Shown here: piece after piece, positions 10,389 to 32,759 of the stretch
How positions within the stretch are numbered: the first letter of the stretch is position 1
Layout: every line of letters begins with the position of its first letter
Origin: an uncultured Planctomycetales bacterium
Lineage (GTDB): Bacteria > Planctomycetota > SZUA-567 > JAFGNG01
Length of the DNA stretch: 60,810 bases
NCBI GenBank assembly: GCA_964577825.1
Contig: CAZOBJ010000006.1
Location: 1 to 60,810 of the forward strand
Reading direction: 5' to 3'
The notes under the pieces: generated by a model
What the model saw: only the letters and a program-made list of their open reading frames with translations
The model's database searches: none
What the model was told of the DNA's origin: nothing
Translations under genes and position numbers: made by a program

Positions 10389-11723
10389 TCAACTTTCTTC
10401 GGACGTTTTCGAGGTGGCGGCGGATTCGTCCCGCGCCGACCGCGGCGCCCGCGCGAACAGCGCGCCTGCGTACAGCACGGCCACGGGCTCCACGAACGGG
10501 ATCCGGTACCGAAGCTCCGAGAAGACCATCGCGTGCATGAGCCCCGCACCCAGCACCATGAGGAAGAGCCCGGCGAAAAGGGCCCCGTCGCGCCGGGCCC
10601 ATCGCAGCGCGCCCCCCAGGGCCGCGGCGAACAGGATCGAGCCCCAGATCCAGCTCACGGCCACCTTCCACCGCGAGGAGTGGATCCGCCCCGCGGGCAA
10701 GAGCCGCATCCCCGGCTGGAAGAAGTGCGCGAACTTGTACGCGCCCAGGCGCAGCGCGTCCCACGGGTGTTCGCGGATGTAGCGCATCCCCTCAGCCTGG
10801 AACTTGAGCGCACGCTCCCAGGGCGGCAGGTGCTTGTACTTCTCGTACAGCTCGGTGCGGTGCCGGTGCGCGGCCTCGTCGGCGCGGTCGTATGCGTGCG
10901 GGTCGTCGGTCTCGTACATCGTCAACAGCCATGGGTTCCACCCCCAGTACACGTTGTACTGGGCCGCCGTGGTGGTGGGAAGGAACACACCCAGGGTCCG
11001 GCGGTTGTACTCCATCCACGGCGTAAGGGTCACGAACGCGGCCGCGAGCATCCCCGCCACGAGCGCGAGCTCGCGCCGACGCCCCCACAGCGCGCGCACC
11101 GTCCACACGAGGGCGAAGGCCATGCCCACCACAAGCAGCGTGGGCCGAGTCATGCCGGCCGCGCCCAGGCAAACGCCCAGCACCGCCGCGCCCATGACGT
11201 GCGGCCGCTGCAGCGACCGGTGCCAAAACCACAGGCTCGCCACGACCAGGAACGTGGACAGGGTCTCGGTCATCAGCCATCCGGTGTGGTAGATGAGGTA
11301 TGGGCTGGCCGCGCCGAACAGGCCCGCGGCCAGGCCCGCGCGCGGACCCCACCGCTGTGCGGCCAGCCACGCCAGCACGCACACCCCCGCCGCGTCCAGC
11401 ACGGCCTGCGCGACCACGGCCCCGCGCCAGCCCAGGCCCACCTTGTAGAGCAGGCACAGGAACGCCGGGTACAGGGGCGCACGGCCCGTGGCCGCGGGCG
11501 CCTCGTGGGCGGGCCGCGGGCCGAACAGGTTGCGCCCGTCCTGGCGCACGAAACCCCGGCCCGTGCAGATGGCGCGAGCCAGGTCGTCGTACTCCCGGGC
11601 ATCCGCGCGCCCGATCTGCGCCATGGGAATGGTGAGCACGTACGGCAGGCGCGCGGCCAGGGACACGGCAAACACCGCGGCCAGGAGCACGCGCCCGGAG
11701 AGTCGTATCCGCCGGATGGCCAT
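10389..11723 (-). CDS. ArnT/PMT-like GT-C membrane glycosyltransferase (GT39/83-like), 444 aa
   Basis: Start trimmed to ATG 11723. DAREYDDLA after TM1, RAPLYPAFL, MTETLS, TRP, many TM helices and a C-terminal LRYRIP, as in ArnT-like enzymes. Confidence 0.8.
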   Translation of the reverse strand: MAIRRIRLSGRVLLAAVFAVSLAARLPYVLTIPMAQIGRADAREYDDLARAICTGRGFVRQDGRNLFGPRPAHEAPAATGRAPLYPAFLCLLYKVGLGWRGAVVAQAVLDAAGVCVLAWLAAQRWGPRAGLAAGLFGAASPYLIYHTGWLMTETLSTFLVVASLWFWHRSLQRPHVMGAAVLGVCLGAAGMTRPTLLVVGMAFALVWTVRALWGRRRELALVAGMLAAAFVTLTPWMEYNRRTLGVFLPTTTAAQYNVYWGWNPWLLTMYETDDPHAYDRADEAAHRHRTELYEKYKHLPPWERALKFQAEGMRYIREHPWDALRLGAYKFAHFFQPGMRLLPAGRIHSSRWKVAVSWIWGSILFAAALGGALRWARRDGALFAGLFLMVLGAGLMHAMVFSELRYRIPFVEPVAVLYAGALFARAPRSARDESAATSKTSEES

Positions 11724-11781
11724 GGACCTGACTCCGCAAGAGGGCCCGGCGGTCCGCCGGGCCCGGGTCGAGGGCCGCCCA

Positions 11782-11810
11782 ACCGTACGTAGGGCCGCGC
11801 CGCGTGTCAA
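11782..11810 (-). promoter_or_regulatory. putative sigma70 promoter for the ArnT-like gene
   Basis: Minus strand TTGACA-N17-TACGGT. Confidence 0.5.
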
Positions 11811-11826
11811 CCCGGCCCGGTCCGGC

Positions 11827-11855
11827 TTGACTTGCCTCTCCGGGGCGGTCATAAT
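11827..11855 (+). promoter_or_regulatory. putative sigma70 promoter for the RACo operon
   Basis: TTGACT-N17-CATAAT, back-to-back with the divergent promoter. Confidence 0.6.
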
Positions 11856-11920
11856 ACCCGCGTATGCGCTCGCGCCCGTTGCGCGATCCGCCCCGCTCTC
11901 GCGTTCGGAGGGCTTCGCAC

Positions 11921-12124
11921 ATGAGCCCGAAGCAGGATATGCGCGACATCCAGTCCGCCTTGCGCACGATCCGCGACTACCACCGCCGCCAGGCCCCGCA
12001 GGGACGGTGGCGGCTGGATGATCCGGTGTGGAAACTCGCGCTCCAGGGCATGGCGGTCTTCGCCGTCGCCTTTGTGTGCGGCCTCGGCGCGGGCGTGTTG
12101 TACGAGGTTCTGACCGGGGGCTGA
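11921..12124 (+). CDS. small hypothetical protein with one C-terminal TM helix, 67 aa
   Basis: ATG after GGAGG, downstream of a good promoter; hydrophobic C-terminus MAVFAVAFVCGLGAGVLY. Confidence 0.55.
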   Translation: MSPKQDMRDIQSALRTIRDYHRRQAPQGRWRLDDPVWKLALQGMAVFAVAFVCGLGAGVLYEVLTGG

Positions 12125-12157
12125 GGCCCCCGCCCGCGCTGCGAGAAGGCCCGGTCC

Positions 12158-13978
12158 ATGCCCACGGTACGCTTCCTTCCCAGTCAGGCCGCCGGCACGG
12201 TGTCGGCCGGGCTGACGCTGCTCGAGGCCGCCCGCCACCTGGGCGTCGAGATCCCGGCCGCCTGCGGGGGCAAGGGCCTATGCGGCAAGTGCCGGATTCG
12301 CGTGCTCGAAGGCGAGGTCGCGCCCGCCCGCGGGCACGAATGCCCGCTCTCTCCGGCCGAGCTCGCATCGGGTTGGCGACTCGCGTGCCTGGCGCGCGTG
12401 CACGACGACCTGGTGGTCGAGGTCCCGGCCGCGCCCGCGCGCACCGTGATCCTGACCGAGTTCGGCCGCACCGAGGTGCCGCTGGAGACGAACCTGCGCG
12501 CCGCGCGCGTGTCTATGCCCGCGCCGTCCCTGGACGACCAGGCCGCGGATCTGGAGCGCCTGGGCCGCGCGCTCGGGCTGCACGCGGGTCCGAACGCCGC
12601 GGTGCCGGTGCTCCGCGAGCTTCCGCACGTCCTGCGCCGCCACGAATGGGAGGTGCAGGCGGTCCTGCTCGGCGACGAGCTCTTGCATGTGGAGGCCCCG
12701 GACGGCGGGCCCCTCTTGGGCCTGGCCGTGGACCTGGGCACGACCACGGTGGCCGCCGACCTCGTGAACCTGGGAACGGGCGAGGACCTGGCTACGGCGA
12801 GCTGCGCCAATCCCCAGGCCGTGCACGGCGACGACGTCATCAGCCGCATCGAGCACGCCGCCCAGAGCCCGGAGGCGCTCGCCGAGCTCCAGGGCCTGGC
12901 CGCCGAGGCGGTCAACGACGTGGCCGCCCGGGCCGCCGAGGCCGCGGGCGCCGCGCCCGAGCGAATCTTCAAGGTGGTCGTGGCGGGCAATACCACGATG
13001 CAGCACCTGTTCCTGGGCCTCTCGCCCCAAGGCATCGGCCGGACGCCGTTCGTCGCCGTACAGCGCCGGGGCGCGAGCCTGCCCGCCTACGCCCTGGGCC
13101 TGCGCACCGCGCCCCACGCGCGCCTGTACGTCATGCCGTCGATCTCCGGGTACGTGGGCGGAGACGTGGTGGCGGGGCTGCTCGCCCACGAGGTGCACCG
13201 CAGCGCGCACACGATTCTCTACATCGACATCGGCACGAACGGCGAAATCGCCCTGCGCGCGAACGGACAGACCTACGCGTGCAGCACGGCGGCCGGCCCC
13301 GCGTTCGAGGGCGCGCGCATCTCCTGCGGCATGCGCGCGGCGAGCGGCGCCATCCTGCACGTGGCCTCGGACACGGATGACTTGCGCATCGAGACCGTGG
13401 ACCGGGAGCCTGCGCGCGGGATGTGCGGCACGGGCCTGTTGGACGCCGCGGCCACGTTCCTGGACCTGGGGCTCTTGGACGACACCGGCCGCCTGCTTGC
13501 CGACAGCGAGCTGCCCGCGGCCATGCCCGTTGCGGTCCGCGCGCGCATGGACACGGGCGACTCCGGGCCCGGCGTGGTCTTGGCCGCCGCGCCGGGCGGG
13601 CCGCGCGTCGTGCTCACCCAGGCCGACCTGCGCGAGCTGCAGCTGGCCAAGGGCGCGGTGGCGGCCGGGGTGGGGGTGCTTCTCGAACACGCGGGGTGCA
13701 CCGAGGCGGACATCGACACCGTGCTCCTGGCCGGCGCGTTCGGGAGCTACTTGCGCCCGCAGAGCGCGCAGCGGGTCGGCCTCATCCCGCCCGAGGCGAG
13801 GCTCGACCGGGTCGCCTTCGTGGGCAACGCGGCCCTGGCCGGGGCGCGTGCGGCGCTCCTGAACGTCTCGCGCCGCGCCGCGGCCGAGGCGCTCGCCCAG
13901 GAGGTCCGCTACGTCGAGCTCTCCGGGCGGGCGGACTTCCAGGCCCGGTTCATGGAGACCATGCACTTTCCTGCCTGA
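12158..13978 (+). CDS. ASKHA-type ATP-dependent reductive activator of corrinoid enzymes (RACo/RamA-like; 2Fe-2S plus DUF4445), 606 aa
   Basis: N-terminal 2Fe-2S motif CGGKGLCGKC...RLAC. ASKHA motifs VDLGTTTV, IDIGTNGE, AGPAFEG, GMCGTG, LQLAKGA, LAGAFGS and GNAA. Confidence 0.92.
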   Translation: MPTVRFLPSQAAGTVSAGLTLLEAARHLGVEIPAACGGKGLCGKCRIRVLEGEVAPARGHECPLSPAELASGWRLACLARVHDDLVVEVPAAPARTVILTEFGRTEVPLETNLRAARVSMPAPSLDDQAADLERLGRALGLHAGPNAAVPVLRELPHVLRRHEWEVQAVLLGDELLHVEAPDGGPLLGLAVDLGTTTVAADLVNLGTGEDLATASCANPQAVHGDDVISRIEHAAQSPEALAELQGLAAEAVNDVAARAAEAAGAAPERIFKVVVAGNTTMQHLFLGLSPQGIGRTPFVAVQRRGASLPAYALGLRTAPHARLYVMPSISGYVGGDVVAGLLAHEVHRSAHTILYIDIGTNGEIALRANGQTYACSTAAGPAFEGARISCGMRAASGAILHVASDTDDLRIETVDREPARGMCGTGLLDAAATFLDLGLLDDTGRLLADSELPAAMPVAVRARMDTGDSGPGVVLAAAPGGPRVVLTQADLRELQLAKGAVAAGVGVLLEHAGCTEADIDTVLLAGAFGSYLRPQSAQRVGLIPPEARLDRVAFVGNAALAGARAALLNVSRRAAAEALAQEVRYVELSGRADFQARFMETMHFPA

Positions 13979-13996
13979 TCGAAGAGGGAAGAGACC

Positions 13997-14551
13997 ATGC
14001 GCATCATCCGCTTGACACTCGCCGGTTTGCTGGTCCTCGTTTGCGCGGCCTGCGAACCGGAAGGCGACCGGAAGTTCGGCTACCTGCTCGGCGGCCCCAA
14101 GGAGACCGAACCGTATCTGCTCGACACGGTGACCGAGCGACCGGTGCCCCTGCTCCTGGACGAGGAGGCCAGCGACCCGGAGGCCCTGCAGAGCTTCCGC
14201 GCGCTCAAGAAGGGCATCCTGTACGGGAACGCCGACGGCGAGGGCATCTATCTGTTCGGGGAGCGCGACCCGGAGACCGGCCGCCTGGCCCTGCATCACT
14301 GGTATATCGTCACGCCCTTCATCGAGTGGCGGTCCGCGCCCGGGTCCCGTTCGCGCGCTCACTCGCGCACGCAGTTGACCCCGGACGACTTCGCAGTCGA
14401 GCCGTACTGGGACGTGCGCGCCCATCAGAAGACCAAGCAGGAGGAGGACGCCCCCTCCTGGCATCGTCCGGAGAGCTGGGAGGACATGGACATCCGCGGC
14501 GACCGCGACGCCCCGGGCAGCCCCTGGTGGCGCCGGGGAGGACCGTTCTGA
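13997..14551 (+). CDS. hypothetical exported protein, probable lipoprotein, 184 aa
   Basis: RBS GGGAAGAG; basic N-terminus, hydrophobic stretch and AAC (imperfect lipobox); in operon context. Confidence 0.65.
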   Translation: MRIIRLTLAGLLVLVCAACEPEGDRKFGYLLGGPKETEPYLLDTVTERPVPLLLDEEASDPEALQSFRALKKGILYGNADGEGIYLFGERDPETGRLALHHWYIVTPFIEWRSAPGSRSRAHSRTQLTPDDFAVEPYWDVRAHQKTKQEEDAPSWHRPESWEDMDIRGDRDAPGSPWWRRGGPF

Positions 14552-29082: not shown

Positions 29083-30111
29083 ATGTCTGTGCGCGTGGGC
29101 GTGATCGGATGCGGGATCATGGGAAGCGCGGTCGCGCGCGTATACGCGATGCTGGACAGCGTCCGGCTCGTCGCGCTCGCGGACGTGCGCGAGGACGCGG
29201 TGAACGCGCTCGGCGACGAGCTGGACGTGGCGGCCCGATACACGGACTACCGACGCATGCTCGAACGCGAGTCCCTGGACGCGGTCAGCGTCGCCACCCC
29301 GGACGCCGCGCACACCGAGCCCGTGCTCGCGGCCCTGGAGGCGGGTTGCCACGTGCTCGTGGAGAAGCCCCTGGCCACCCGCCAGGCGCAGGCCGAGGCG
29401 ATCCGCCGCGCGGTCGCGCAGACCGGGCGCAAGCTCCAAGTCGCATACAATCACCGGTGGCTCGCGCCCTACCACAAGGTCAAGGAGCTGGCCGCAAGCG
29501 GCGAGCTCGGCGACCCGGTGCTGGCCTCGGCGCGAAAGAACAACCCGATCTCCGTGCCCACGGACATGATCCGCGCTTGGTCGGCGAAAACCACCCCCGC
29601 GTGGTTCCTGTCCTGCCACGACATGGACCTGGTCTCGTGGTGGTTTGACGCGGACCCGGTGGAGGCCTATGCCCGGGGCGTGAAGCGCGTGCTCGCCGAC
29701 CAAGGGTTCGACACCTACGACGCGATCCAGTCCCTGGTGACCTTTGCGGGCGGGCGCACCGCGACCTTCGAGGCCGCGTGGATCTACCCGAATTCCTCGC
29801 CGTACATGCCCGACAGCTTCATGGAGCTCGTGGGCACCCGGGGCACCACGCAGATCGACCGCAGCGCCGAGGCGATCGACGCCATGCTTGCGGACCGGTT
29901 CGTGTGCCCGCGCACCTTCCTCCAGTACCAGGTGTTCGACGAGTGGCAGGGCGCGTTCCCGGCCTGCATCCGGGCGTTCGTGCGCGCCGTCGAGCAGGAC
30001 ACCGAGCCGTATGTGACCGCGCGCGACGGCCTGCGCGTGACCGCGATCCTCGAGGCCGTGCACCGGTCCTTGGAGACGGGCCGGCCCGAGCGCATCCGCC
30101 TGGGAGTCTAA
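29083..30111 (+). CDS. Gfo/Idh/MocA family oxidoreductase, 342 aa
   Basis: GVIGCGIMG, VATPD...H, VEKP and CHDMD. Confidence 0.9.
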   Translation: MSVRVGVIGCGIMGSAVARVYAMLDSVRLVALADVREDAVNALGDELDVAARYTDYRRMLERESLDAVSVATPDAAHTEPVLAALEAGCHVLVEKPLATRQAQAEAIRRAVAQTGRKLQVAYNHRWLAPYHKVKELAASGELGDPVLASARKNNPISVPTDMIRAWSAKTTPAWFLSCHDMDLVSWWFDADPVEAYARGVKRVLADQGFDTYDAIQSLVTFAGGRTATFEAAWIYPNSSPYMPDSFMELVGTRGTTQIDRSAEAIDAMLADRFVCPRTFLQYQVFDEWQGAFPACIRAFVRAVEQDTEPYVTARDGLRVTAILEAVHRSLETGRPERIRLGV

Positions 30112-30169: not shown

Positions 30170-31255
30170 TCACAGGCAAGCTGCCCGGCCGTACGTGCGG
30201 CAGGCGTCCAGGTACGCCTCGATGTTCTGCCAGGGGACGTCCGGTTCGATCACGTGCGTGGGCTCGATGTACAGCCCCCCGCCGCGGCCGACAACCTCCA
30301 CCAGGTGCTTGACCGCGGCGCGCACCTCGTCGGGCGTGCCGAAGGGAAGCGTCGTCTGCGTGCCCACCCCGCCCCAGAAGGACAGGCGGTCGCCGTACCG
30401 GCGCTTGAGCTCGTCGATATCCATGCACTCGGGCTGCACGGGGTTGAGGATATCCAGTCCGATCTCGATGAGCTCGGGCACGATGGCGGTCACGTCGCCG
30501 TCGGAGTGATACCACACCAGGGCCTCGGGATTGGCCTGCTTGACCGCGGCGAACTGCCGCGCGAGCCGCTCCTTGAGGAACGTGCGCCAGACCTCGGGCG
30601 CGATCATCATGCCCTGCTGCGTGCCCACGTCGTCCCCGAACCGCACGACGTCCGCGCCCGCACGCGCCGCGGCCGCGGCCAGCGCGCAGTTGATCCGGGT
30701 GATCCGCTCAAGCAGCGCGTGCGCGAGCTCGGGCGCCTCGTAGAAGTCCATCAAGAGGTCTTCCATGCCCCGGATTTGCCACGCGCGTTCGAACACGTTC
30801 CCGGCGAACAGGGCGACCGCCATGCCTCGCTCGTGCGCGCGGGCCGCATCCGCGGCAAAGGCCTCGTGCCGGTACGCGGCGTCGCGGTCGTCGAGGGGGT
30901 AGATCTCGATCTCTTCCAGGCTGGGCTCGCGCCCGGCGAGCGGGCTGACCACATGCGTGAAGTGCTCGAATCCCGCGGGTTCGCGCGCCACCCCGTCCGC
31001 GGTGAGTGCCGTGCCCGGCTTGAGGGTCCGATTCTCGTAGTAGCGCGCATAGTCATGCTCGGCCCGGCTCGGGCCCAGGGCCACGGCCTCGTGGCACGTC
31101 TCGCACACGTCGCCGAGCATCGGCTCGCGGCCCAAGCGCGGGCGGTAGCGCTCCTTGAACTCGCGGCGCATGCGCGGGGTGAAACTCAAACCGAACGGGA
31201 TGAACTCCCCGCCCCGGCGCCGAAGCACGGCCAGCAGGTTCTCGCGCTTAGTCAC
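30170..31255 (-). CDS. uroporphyrinogen decarboxylase / MtaA-CmuA methyltransferase superfamily protein, 361 aa
   Basis: GTG 31255 start. FERAWQIRGMEDLLMD, FGDDVGTQ, WYHSDG, ILNPVQPE, FWGGVGTQ..LPFGTPDEV and PTH. Not a canonical HemE. Confidence 0.8.
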   Translation of the reverse strand: MTKRENLLAVLRRRGGEFIPFGLSFTPRMRREFKERYRPRLGREPMLGDVCETCHEAVALGPSRAEHDYARYYENRTLKPGTALTADGVAREPAGFEHFTHVVSPLAGREPSLEEIEIYPLDDRDAAYRHEAFAADAARAHERGMAVALFAGNVFERAWQIRGMEDLLMDFYEAPELAHALLERITRINCALAAAAARAGADVVRFGDDVGTQQGMMIAPEVWRTFLKERLARQFAAVKQANPEALVWYHSDGDVTAIVPELIEIGLDILNPVQPECMDIDELKRRYGDRLSFWGGVGTQTTLPFGTPDEVRAAVKHLVEVVGRGGGLYIEPTHVIEPDVPWQNIEAYLDACRTYGRAACL

Positions 31256-31302
31256 CGGATTCCCCTGTGCGCGGCCCGTTGCGCGAACTCGCCCGAGTCG
31301 GC

Positions 31303-32673
31303 TCACCCGGTCTCGAAGAACCGCGGCAGGTACGGCCTGGACGCCTCCAGGAGCTCGTCGAGCATCTCTTGCGCGCGGTCGGGCCAAATGGCCATCTCGT
31401 CCAGGATCAGGGCCTGCAGCGCCGCGGCCCGGTCGCCTTTGGCCGCGGCGTCGGCCACGAGCTCCTGCCAGGCGAACCGCTTCTCCAGGATGCCCTTCAG
31501 CGCCCGCGGCGCCGGGCCCATGGTCACCGGCCGCGCGCCGCGCCAGGTGGTGACCGCCTCGACCTCCACCTCCGCGTCCAGGGGGAGGTTGGGCACCGCG
31601 CCCTGGTTGGCGAGGTTGGCCACGAACACGTGCCGCTTGCCCGTGGCCATGGCCCCGAGGGCGAGCCCCGTGTTCTCGCCCTCGAATGTGCGCGCCTCGG
31701 GCAGGGCCATCTGGTCGAGCGTCTCCTGAAAGGCGGCGAGCATCCTCTCGCGCGCGTCGGCGGGGAACGCGGCCACCGGCCCTTCGGGAAAGTAGTCCGC
31801 ATGCATCTCGTCGATGCGCCGCAGGGTCCAGTACGGCGCGTTGCCCCGGTCCGGGTAGGTGTCCACCTGTGCGAGGAAGGGGTAGAACTCCAGGATGTGG
31901 TTGTCCTCCGGGTACACGGTCTGGAACCCGTGGATGCGCGACAGGTCCGCGGCCAGCCGCTGGCGGTCCCCGGCCCGGGCCTGCATGGCCGCGCGCACCC
32001 GGTCGTACACGTCCTCGCCGCGAAGGCGGATGGCGGTGAACCAGTAGTAGTGGTTCGTGCCCACCCAGGTGCACGAGAGCTCTTCCGGCGGCACGTCCAG
32101 CAGCTTGGCCACGAACGCGATGCCCTCCTGCACGCCGTGGCAGATGCCCACCACCTGCACGGCCGTGTACTTGCGGACGGCGCGGCAGATGACGCTCATG
32201 GGGTTGGCGTGGTTGAAGAGCACCGCGCCCGGGCAGCGCCTCTCCATGGCCGCGCAGACCTCCAGGAACGCGGGCACGGACCGCAGGCCCATCATCAGGG
32301 CCGCCGGCCCGCCCGTGTCGCCGGTGAGCTGGTAGATGCCGTACTTCGCTGGGATGAACCGGTCGGCCCTGTGGATGGGCGACTGGTGCACGCCCGCGGT
32401 GGGCTCGGTGCCGCTGCCGCCGATGGACGCGAGCACGAAGTCCGCGCCCTCCAGCGCCTCATCCAGGGTCGCAACCGCGCGTACGGTCATGCCGGTGCCC
32501 GCATCCTCGGCCAGGCGCGCGGCCCTGGCCCGCATGCGCGCGGCGCGCTCCCCGTCCAGGTCATAGAGCACGATCTCGGACTCGGCCAGGTCCTCGGTGA
32601 CGAGCAGGTCCGGGAGCGCGCGCCGGTAGTACCGGCTGCCCGCGCCCACGCAAGCGATCTTGGTTGCGGCCAT
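31303..32673 (-). CDS. family 4 glycoside hydrolase (NAD+/metal-dependent), 456 aa
   Basis: ACVGAGS NAD-binding motif, GDTGGP, NHANP, GICH (conserved Cys), GTNH, NQGAVPNLP..AEVEV. Confidence 0.88.
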   Translation of the reverse strand: MAATKIACVGAGSRYYRRALPDLLVTEDLAESEIVLYDLDGERAARMRARAARLAEDAGTGMTVRAVATLDEALEGADFVLASIGGSGTEPTAGVHQSPIHRADRFIPAKYGIYQLTGDTGGPAALMMGLRSVPAFLEVCAAMERRCPGAVLFNHANPMSVICRAVRKYTAVQVVGICHGVQEGIAFVAKLLDVPPEELSCTWVGTNHYYWFTAIRLRGEDVYDRVRAAMQARAGDRQRLAADLSRIHGFQTVYPEDNHILEFYPFLAQVDTYPDRGNAPYWTLRRIDEMHADYFPEGPVAAFPADARERMLAAFQETLDQMALPEARTFEGENTGLALGAMATGKRHVFVANLANQGAVPNLPLDAEVEVEAVTTWRGARPVTMGPAPRALKGILEKRFAWQELVADAAAKGDRAAALQALILDEMAIWPDRAQEMLDELLEASRPYLPRFFETG

Positions 32674-32714
32674 GGCGGACTCCCCCTGTGCACGGACGCG
32701 GCACTGTGCGCACC

Positions 32715-32743
32715 CACCTAGCCGGTCGTGCGCAGCGTGTCAA
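32715..32743 (-). promoter_or_regulatory. putative sigma70 promoter for the GH4/URO-D operon
   Basis: Minus strand TTGACA-N17-TAGGTG. Confidence 0.4.
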
Positions 32744-32759
32744 GGTCGGTCGGGCTGGG

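Follow-up and report, generated by a model that had tools for sequence, protein, structure and literature searches.

A uroporphyrinogen decarboxylase-like protein with a rebuilt metal site, encoded beside a GH4 glycosidase in an uncultured Planctomycetales bacterium, is a candidate corrinoid-dependent methyltransferase

Introduction

What does a protein with the fold of uroporphyrinogen decarboxylase (URO-D, UroD) do beside a glycosidase? This question is raised by a minus-strand locus of an uncultured Planctomycetales bacterium, in which a gene encoding a glycoside hydrolase of family 4 (GH4) is followed by a gene encoding a UroD/MtaA-fold protein, here called the URO-D-like protein. The stretch of DNA analysed, hereafter the window, is contig CAZOBJ010000006.1 at its full length of 60,810 nucleotides. 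It is contig C6 of a metagenome-assembled genome (MAG; G000, 3.5 Mb, 87% complete, approximately 71% GC). An earlier note on the window had proposed that the two genes form a dedicated two-step unit, in which a glycoside is cleaved and then processed in a metal-dependent, possibly corrinoid-linked step.

On balance, we favour the view that the URO-D-like protein is an uncharacterised corrinoid-protein-dependent methyltransferase that acts on a non-thiol substrate and makes up, together with GH4, a unit of two cytoplasmic enzymes. Corrinoid methyltransferases of the UroD superfamily are already known. New here are a defined orthologous group, its conserved His/Asp/Glu/His site, its co-occurrence with the RACo-type reductive activator of corrinoid enzymes (RACo), corrinoid-protein genes coupled to its members, and a natural fusion.

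Fold and metal site of the URO-D-like protein

The URO-D-like protein matches PF01208 (E 6.6e-26), with the match spanning residues 142-355 (profile positions 134-346) only. In phmmer comparisons with solved structures, its closest relative by sequence is MtaA of M. mazei (4ay7; E 2.3e-8), and UroD of P. aeruginosa is matched with an E value of 8.9e-5 (24.9 bits). A model built with AlphaFold2 from an input of 24 orthologues reached a predicted local distance difference test (pLDDT) score of 94.6. Foldseek matched this model equally well to UroD and MtaA structures, with template modelling (TM) scores of 0.65-0.71, and found nothing closer. The scores were 0.65-0.70 for UroD structures and 0.67/0.71 for 4ay7_A (E 4.6e-13, 17-18% identity). 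The protein thus has the UroD-type (beta/alpha)8 barrel.

Exact alignment to 4ay7 places WYHSDG (HSDG, residues 250-253) on the HiCG of MtaA and EPTHV (PTH, residues 332-334) on its PGCG. This confirms the earlier reading that HSDG and PTH stand where MtaA-type methyltransferases have HxC and C. The zinc ligands His-x-Cys...Cys, which are the motif of methyltransferase II (MT-II) enzymes, are replaced by His250-x-Asp252...His334. The stretch ending in Glu276 (QPE276) falls on the VEE stretch of MtaA, and Glu276 is retained. In the AlphaFold2 model, H250, D252, E276 and H334 sit at the C-terminal ends of consecutive barrel strands. Their spacing resembles the His-x-Cys...Glu...Cys pattern of MetE, in which zinc is held at H618-x-C620/E642/C704 (PMC539065). 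The four residues are predicted to bind a metal. Such a site would offer hard N/O ligands instead of the soft His/Cys/Cys set of thiol-alkylating enzymes, which indicates a non-thiol substrate.

Distribution and conservation of the orthologous group

The metal site is nearly invariant among 66 orthologues from more than 12 phyla. The orthologues are 43-65% identical over their full length across phyla, and their carriers include Planctomycetota, Chloroflexota, Armatimonadota, Verrucomicrobiota, Kiritimatiellota, Acidobacteriota, Ignavibacteriota, Poribacteria, WS1, and Clostridia. In the alignment of the 66 orthologues, H250 and E276 are each conserved in 65/65 sequences and H334 in 64/64. D252 is conserved in 62/65, and the other three have Cys at this position, which fits a metal-ligand role. 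C277 is found in 64 sequences, and D208, D209, Q213, E156, and W159 are nearly fixed as well. Clustered at 50% identity, the matches of an exhaustive search number 945 at E<=1e-30 and 9,917 at E<=1e-3.

All members are labelled 'uroporphyrinogen decarboxylase (family protein)' in the source databases, and the ESM Atlas clusters are equally generic. A literature search retrieved no paper on the orthologous group, and nothing relevant on URO-D-like enzymes with glycoside hydrolases, on methylated-sugar/corrinoid demethylation, or on GH4 motifs. The automatic annotation would make the protein a genuine uroporphyrinogen decarboxylase (HemE; EC 4.1.1.37), in line with the above-cut-off PF01208 match and the structural similarity to UroD. 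This identity is effectively refuted, and we give it next to no chance. The Pfam match covers the C-terminal two thirds and leaves out the N-terminal, substrate-binding third, and the score against P. aeruginosa UroD is low. The genome carries 17 such genes, whereas the haem-pathway gene is single-copy. The metal-site motif is invariant here and absent from UroD, which is metal-free, and the genomic context consists of sugar and corrinoid genes with no haem genes. Thousands of 'uroporphyrinogen decarboxylase' genes in sugar degraders, spanning Planctomycetota, Verrucomicrobiota, Armatimonadota, Chloroflexota, Acidobacteriota, and gut Clostridia, encode neither haem enzymes nor the known zinc-thiol methyltransferases.

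Genomic association with corrinoid proteins and RACo

The window encodes the sole RACo of the genome. RACo (PF14574) was scored against the orthologue in a phylum sample of 401 Planctomycetota genomes, 27 of which carry the orthologue. RACo is present in 25/26 of the other orthologue-bearing genomes, compared with 120/374 of those lacking the orthologue (Fisher p 4e-11, a value that is overstated as the relatives are not independent; the 26 genomes represent 12 families). In other phyla, 28/30 orthologue-bearing genomes have RACo, compared with 1/14 control genomes. Altogether, 53/56 other orthologue-bearing genomes encode it.

Neighbourhoods were compared for 80 orthologue loci with 10-kb flanks. 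An MtaC-like corrinoid protein is encoded within 10 kb of the orthologue in 7/80 loci, and in three of them the genes are adjacent or coupled. Only about 1/80 would be expected by chance, because the genomes hold 1-4 such genes per 3.3-5.6 Mb. In two Acidobacteriota loci (L020 and L032), the stop codon of the corrinoid-protein gene overlaps the ATG of the orthologue. In L086, a 12-bp gap separates the two genes, and an MttB-family methyltransferase is encoded upstream. Locus L024 encodes, in order, a corrinoid protein, a homocysteine S-methyltransferase (PF02574), DUF1638, the orthologue, a URO-D paralogue, an unknown gene, a second URO-D paralogue, and RACo. This layout resembles split-MetH-like clusters (PMC9324843) and mlp clusters (PMC10418091). 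In the Armatimonadota locus L044, the corrinoid protein is the only free-standing one in its genome.

The two Acidobacteriota loci share the gene order amino-acid permease, MtaC-like corrinoid protein, URO-D orthologue, and penicillin-amidase-family hydrolase (L020:9294-11074 and L032:9450-11074). No RACo match was found in the L032 genome.

The exhaustive search also yielded a natural fusion, the metagenomic protein P0389 (586 aa), in which a URO-D-like domain is followed by a C-terminal cobalamin-binding domain. Over 213 residues, its URO-D-like part shares 43% identity with the window protein, and the site reads H-x-C/E/H. The cobalamin-binding domain carries DxHxxG and shares 41% identity with the corrinoid protein of this genome. 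The domain order of P0389 is opposite to the gene order in the coupled Acidobacteriota loci. A further candidate, P0374 (686 aa), is not a B12 fusion and was rejected. A separate word-index search for longer, fused proteins gave no match.

These associations bear on another reading of the protein, in which it is a B12-independent metal enzyme (a hydrolase, decarboxylase, isomerase or similar) that acts on a sugar derivative supplied by neighbouring enzymes and uses the H/D/E/H site as a Lewis acid. Hard N/O ligands are typical of hydrolytic and lyase metal sites rather than of thiol-alkylating zinc sites (PMC539065), most orthologue loci contain sugar genes and no corrinoid protein, and one orthologue lies in an amino-sugar-like operon (L015; GH4, PfkB, SIS, DeoR, and GH114). 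The RACo co-occurrence, the translational coupling to corrinoid proteins and the fusion of a 43% identical paralogue to a B12 domain all speak against B12 independence, and we regard this reading as unlikely.

The corrinoid link suggested in the earlier note is upheld by RACo co-occurrence, neighbouring MtaC-like proteins and the paralogue fusion, and the contents of the window are not its basis. The RACo gene noted there is indeed present. A local functional link between it and the pair was rejected, as it lies 16 kb away amid glycosyltransferase and other envelope-biosynthesis genes unrelated to the pair. RACo is likely a partner of the URO-D-like enzyme in trans.

URO-D paralogues in the genome

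The 17 PF01208 matches in the genome are distributed over contigs C1, C3, C7, C12, C13, C19, C20, C24, C28, C41, C50, C59, C66, C82, C157, C203, and the window. Their metal-site motifs fall into the classes HLCG..C, HSCG..H, H[ST]DG..H, D[SC]DG..DH, and degenerate forms. Only the C41 paralogue retains the canonical His-x-Cys...Cys. It is encoded beside a DeoR regulator, a class-III aminotransferase, an FGGY sugar kinase, and an Amidohydro_2 protein (C41:1-8457). The genome encodes one MtaC-like corrinoid protein, on C22, with B12-binding_2 and B12-binding domains. Both components of a corrinoid system, the MtaC-type protein and the RACo activase, are thus encoded. Searches of the genome found no DUF1638 and no CdhD/CFeSP. 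Genomes in which URO-D genes have expanded around a single corrinoid carrier are a recurring design.

The earlier note had also counted a second URO-D-like gene in the window, and this was not borne out, as the PF01208 search gave one match on the contig and no second. A truncated ORF at the contig end shows a weak co-linear likeness to the URO-D-like family, with YGCC opposite HSDG, and its scores are marginal (Table 1). A 228-aa homologue of this ORF is encoded in L092, 3.4 kb from the URO-D orthologue. Judged by these alignments, the ORF is possibly a very remote relative of the URO-D superfamily, and it is perhaps the gene that had been meant.

The GH4 glycosidase and its pairing with the URO-D-like gene

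The GH4 protein matches both family domains, PF02056 (E 2.3e-37) and PF11975 (E 7.7e-30). It carries the N-terminal GxGS NAD site (GAGS, residues 10-13), Cys178-His179 in 'GICHG' and His208 in 'GTNHYYW'. Cys178 and His208 align with the Cys and His metal ligands of solved GH4 enzymes. These features confirm its family membership. The top full-length alignment is with the alpha-galacturonidase LplD (3fef; E 4.7e-38). In one alignment, the residues from the Cys onwards are C-H-G-V in the window GH4 and C-H-E in LplD, compared with C-N-V-P in 6-P-beta-glucosidase and C-D-M-P in GlvA. Hall, Pikis and Thompson are said to have described CN[VI]P and CDMP in 2009 as a phospho-sugar signature, with the CH-type marking unphosphorylated substrates. 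By its motifs, GH4 appears to be an intact NAD+/Mn2+-type enzyme of the 'Cys-His' kind, resembling enzymes that act on non-phosphorylated glycosides. Its orthologous group (50-60% identity) occurs in Armatimonadota, Phycisphaerae, Kiritimatiellae, and Latescibacteria and has no characterised member. The label 'alpha-galactosidase' is automatic only.

As a conserved system, the dedicated two-step unit found no support in the comparison with other genomes. GH4 adjoins the orthologue in 1/80 loci, an Armatimonadota locus (L073) whose GH4 is just 32% identical, and lies approximately 9.6 kb from it in two further loci. At the order level (37 genomes), orthologues 40-49% identical were found on about nine contigs, none of which carries GH4. 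In the phylum sample, 16 genomes encode GH4 (E<=1e-50), and no contig is shared by the two genes in the 26 other carriers. The two GH4 orthologues that exceed 50% identity there, those of G042 and G067, both lack an adjoining URO-D gene. Around them lie an isopropylmalate-dehydrogenase-like gene, ExbD, and a GDSL lipase. Sequence clustering of orthologue neighbours revealed no conserved partner, with a maximum of 10/80 loci. A scan of metagenomic contigs with a single-protein query added only five loci, which were distant or short. The exception is probably the nearest relative. The best matches of the two proteins, P0002 (65%, URO-D-like) and P0122 (59%, GH4), are both Logan singletons, and they probably share a contig of about 11 kb because the longest contig is 10,975 bp in each case.

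The genes next to orthologues are often sugar genes, though with exceptions. In a tally of 108 same-strand neighbours from 65 loci, the Pfam families met most often are zinc-dependent alcohol dehydrogenases, GFO/IDH/MocA oxidoreductases, ABC sugar permeases and binding proteins, AraC, GH2, GH35, GH42, and SSF/MFS transporters; B12-binding and DUF1638 occur twice each. In relatives within the Planctomycetota, the neighbouring genes are of scattered kinds and include AraC, a LacI-type sugar-binding domain, GH2 beta-galactosidase, a xylose-isomerase-like barrel, and other URO-D paralogues. The orthologue associates with carbohydrate loci in general and not with GH4, and the GH4 pairing is specific to this lineage and of little general importance.

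A long same-strand operon of an Anaerolineales MAG (L015:38-13214) encodes GH4, a PfkB kinase, a URO-D paralogue, DeoR, a SIS-domain protein, a solute-binding protein, four permeases, the URO-D orthologue, GH114, and an unknown protein. Its gene content suggests a locus for amino-sugar (galactosamine-type) utilisation that includes two URO-D-fold enzymes.

It is a substantial possibility, if somewhat short of an even one, that GH4 and the URO-D-like gene lie side by side by chance, in a genome poor in operon structure, and that the product of GH4 is not the substrate of the URO-D-like protein. The single adjacent GH4 among the 80 loci, the separate contigs in the 26 Planctomycetota genomes, the unrelated genes around the GH4 orthologues and the scattered orthologue neighbours in relatives all fit such an arrangement. 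It is countered by the short same-strand spacing of the two genes (47 bp), by the probable single contig of their best matches, and by GH4 genes that in several genomes are found at distances of 3-15 kb from URO-D paralogues and, in L015, head the operon.

Proposed function

In the corrinoid-dependent function that we favour, a methyl compound of the non-thiol (O- or N-linked) kind would be bound at the hard-ligand metal site, and its methyl group would be exchanged with Co(I)/CH3-Co(III) on the single MtaC-like corrinoid protein. The single RACo of the window would keep the corrinoid protein reduced. The URO-D-like enzyme would probably be the substrate-specific half of the system (methyltransferase I, MT-I), and the donor may be a methylated sugar, or else a methoxylated aglycone that GH4 sets free. 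The MT-I role is favoured because many divergent paralogues face one carrier, because L024 has an MT-II candidate of its own, and because thiol activation has been lost.

The direction of transfer could also be the reverse. In an MT-II-type role, the protein would pass the methyl moiety carried by a methylated corrinoid protein to a non-thiol acceptor, as MtbA passes it to coenzyme M after MttB. MtaA, the nearest of the solved relatives in sequence, is an MT-II enzyme, and in L086 the MttB-family methyltransferase and the corrinoid protein are encoded directly upstream of the orthologue. Against this role stand the loss of both thiol-activating Cys ligands, the separate MT-II candidate (PF02574) of L024, and the ratio of 17 divergent paralogues to one corrinoid protein, which suits a substrate-specific MT-I better. 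We consider the MT-II role quite improbable.

Several observations weigh against a corrinoid-dependent methyltransferase that works with GH4. The corrinoid protein, RACo and the URO-D-like gene are mutually unlinked in this genome, and in 73/80 loci the 10 kb on either side of the orthologue encode no corrinoid protein. The RACo signal may come from canonical H-x-C...C paralogues in the same genomes, such as that on C41 here; in G433, the URO-D genes number only two, one per type. The P0389 fusion involves a paralogue, not an orthologue, and its second ligand position is occupied by Cys. The loci disagree on direction, as the MttB-type MT-I upstream in L086 would make the orthologue an MT-II. 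The rarity of GH4 beside the orthologue and the absence of shared contigs in the phylum sample, as described above, count in the same sense. Demethylation of a methyl sugar is a guess, reasonable as an idea of the donor.

A narrower proposal can be made on the same basis. The H-x-Asp/Glu/His branch may provide the MT-I of an oxygen-independent corrinoid O-demethylase for methylated sugars or methoxylated aglycones, with GH4 releasing the substrate in this genome and RACo keeping the carrier active. We put this forward tentatively, as a doubtful but possible case. Aerobes demethylate O-methyl sugars with P450 monooxygenases, and we know of no route by which anaerobes remove the O-methyl group from sugars. 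If true, the proposal would account for the handling of O-methyl sugars by anaerobic glycan degraders of more than 12 phyla. The orthologous group is a concrete candidate for the anaerobic demethylation of non-thiol substrates.

Gene layout and other features of the window

Gene calls were based on codon-position GC and on the reading of open reading frames (ORFs). The ORF reading and Pfam matches confirm the coordinates and identities of the two same-strand genes described in the earlier note (Table 1). For the URO-D-like gene, a start at the other possible GTG, at 31306, would create an overlap with the GH4 stop codon; the start at 31255 is favoured because homologues start at the MT(K/S)RE position. 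Given the 47-bp spacing, the two genes are likely co-transcribed in this genome.

The promoter that had been assigned to the pair is a mixed case. In the sequence upstream of GH4, a perfect TTGACA, a spacer and a ribosome-binding site (RBS) can be read. The TAGGTG element is weak, a consensus scan of the unit called neither a promoter nor a terminator, and the upstream gene ends only 87 bp away. This upstream gene encodes a lipoprotein, and the next one a PD40/TolB-like protein, both on the same strand as GH4.

On the other side of the pair lies a convergent gene for a sugar-type oxidoreductase of the GFO/IDH/MocA family, which also recurs next to URO-D-like orthologues elsewhere. Around RACo, overlapping long ORFs on both strands precede the gene (10389-12125) and have no clear Pfam call. 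A minus-strand ORF that overlaps the RACo start has only a weak PMT_2 glycosyltransferase match, and a 190-aa ORF directly after RACo (13979-14551) has no Pfam match.

Table 1. Coordinates of the features discussed, numbered from the first letter of the window
Feature	Position	Strand	Remarks
RACo-type reductive activator of corrinoid enzymes	12158-13978	+	Fer2 + RACo_linker + Raco_middle + RACo_C_ter; sole copy in genome
GFO/IDH/MocA sugar-type oxidoreductase	29083-30111	+	Pfam assignment; convergent, 58 bp from the stop of the URO-D-like gene
UroD/MtaA-fold (URO-D-like) protein	30170-31255	-	361 aa; PF01208; label "uroporphyrinogen decarboxylase" automatic only
Predicted metal-site codons	within 30254-30508	-	H250 30506-30508, D252 30500-30502, E276 30428-30430, H334 30254-30256
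Spacer between GH4 and URO-D-like gene	31256-31302	-	47 bp; RBS-like GGGGA before GTG start
GH4 glycoside hydrolase	31303-32673	-	456 aa, cytoplasmic; PF02056 + PF11975
Region upstream of GH4 (candidate promoter)	32674-32759	-	TTGACA 32743-32738, 17-nt spacer, TAGGTG 32720-32715, RBS GGGGGAG 32686-32680
Truncated ORF at contig end	59576-60808	+	411 aa; no Pfam; custom paralogue hidden Markov model E 2.7e-4; hhalign probability 51%, E 1.5e-4

Comparison with known systems

Among characterised GH4 enzymes, LplD (3fef) and AglA share with the window GH4 both GH4 domains, the GxGS motif, the Cys-His pair and the metal-binding His, and differ from it in that identity is only about 30%.

The C-terminal barrel of MetE carries four similarly spaced ligands at the equivalent strand ends (PMC539065), and its fold match to the URO-D-like protein is weak. 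In MetE the barrel is double, methyl-folate is used directly and a thiol is bound, whereas the window protein is a single barrel without Cys ligands.

The methylcobamide:coenzyme M methyltransferases MtaA, MtbA and MtsA (MT-II; 4ay7/4ay8) have the same barrel fold, with TM scores of 0.67-0.71 and co-linear metal-site positions. Their partners are an MtaC-type corrinoid protein and an ATP-dependent activase, and the window genome encodes both kinds. They differ in that identity is only 17-18% and the N-terminal 130 residues are unrelated. The window protein has lost both zinc cysteines (Cys to Asp and Cys to His), so thiol activation is unlikely. In addition, MtaA, MtbA and MtsA are enzymes of methanogens, whereas the organism of the window is a sugar-degrading bacterium.

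Type 1 mlp clusters combine several UroD-superfamily paralogues with one corrinoid protein and a reductive activase (Ram/RACE) in non-methanogens, and the layout of L024 is similar. By definition, Type 1 Mlps are more than 25% identical to coenzyme M methyltransferases and come mostly from Firmicutes (PMC10418091). The window family is more distant, as seen in its identity to 4ay7, has another metal site and is usually unclustered, with no cluster in this genome.

The corrinoid-dependent O-demethylases of acetogens and Desulfitobacterium, whose MT-I components OdmB, VdmB and MtvB belong to the UroD superfamily (PMC10418091), act on phenyl methyl ethers and are encoded by clustered genes, whereas the window family is dispersed and stands in carbohydrate contexts. 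The comparison of the window protein with OdmB and VdmB is one of description. OdmB, VdmB and MtvB transfer the methyl group of an ether oxygen to a corrinoid protein, and many substrate-specific paralogues share one carrier and one activator.

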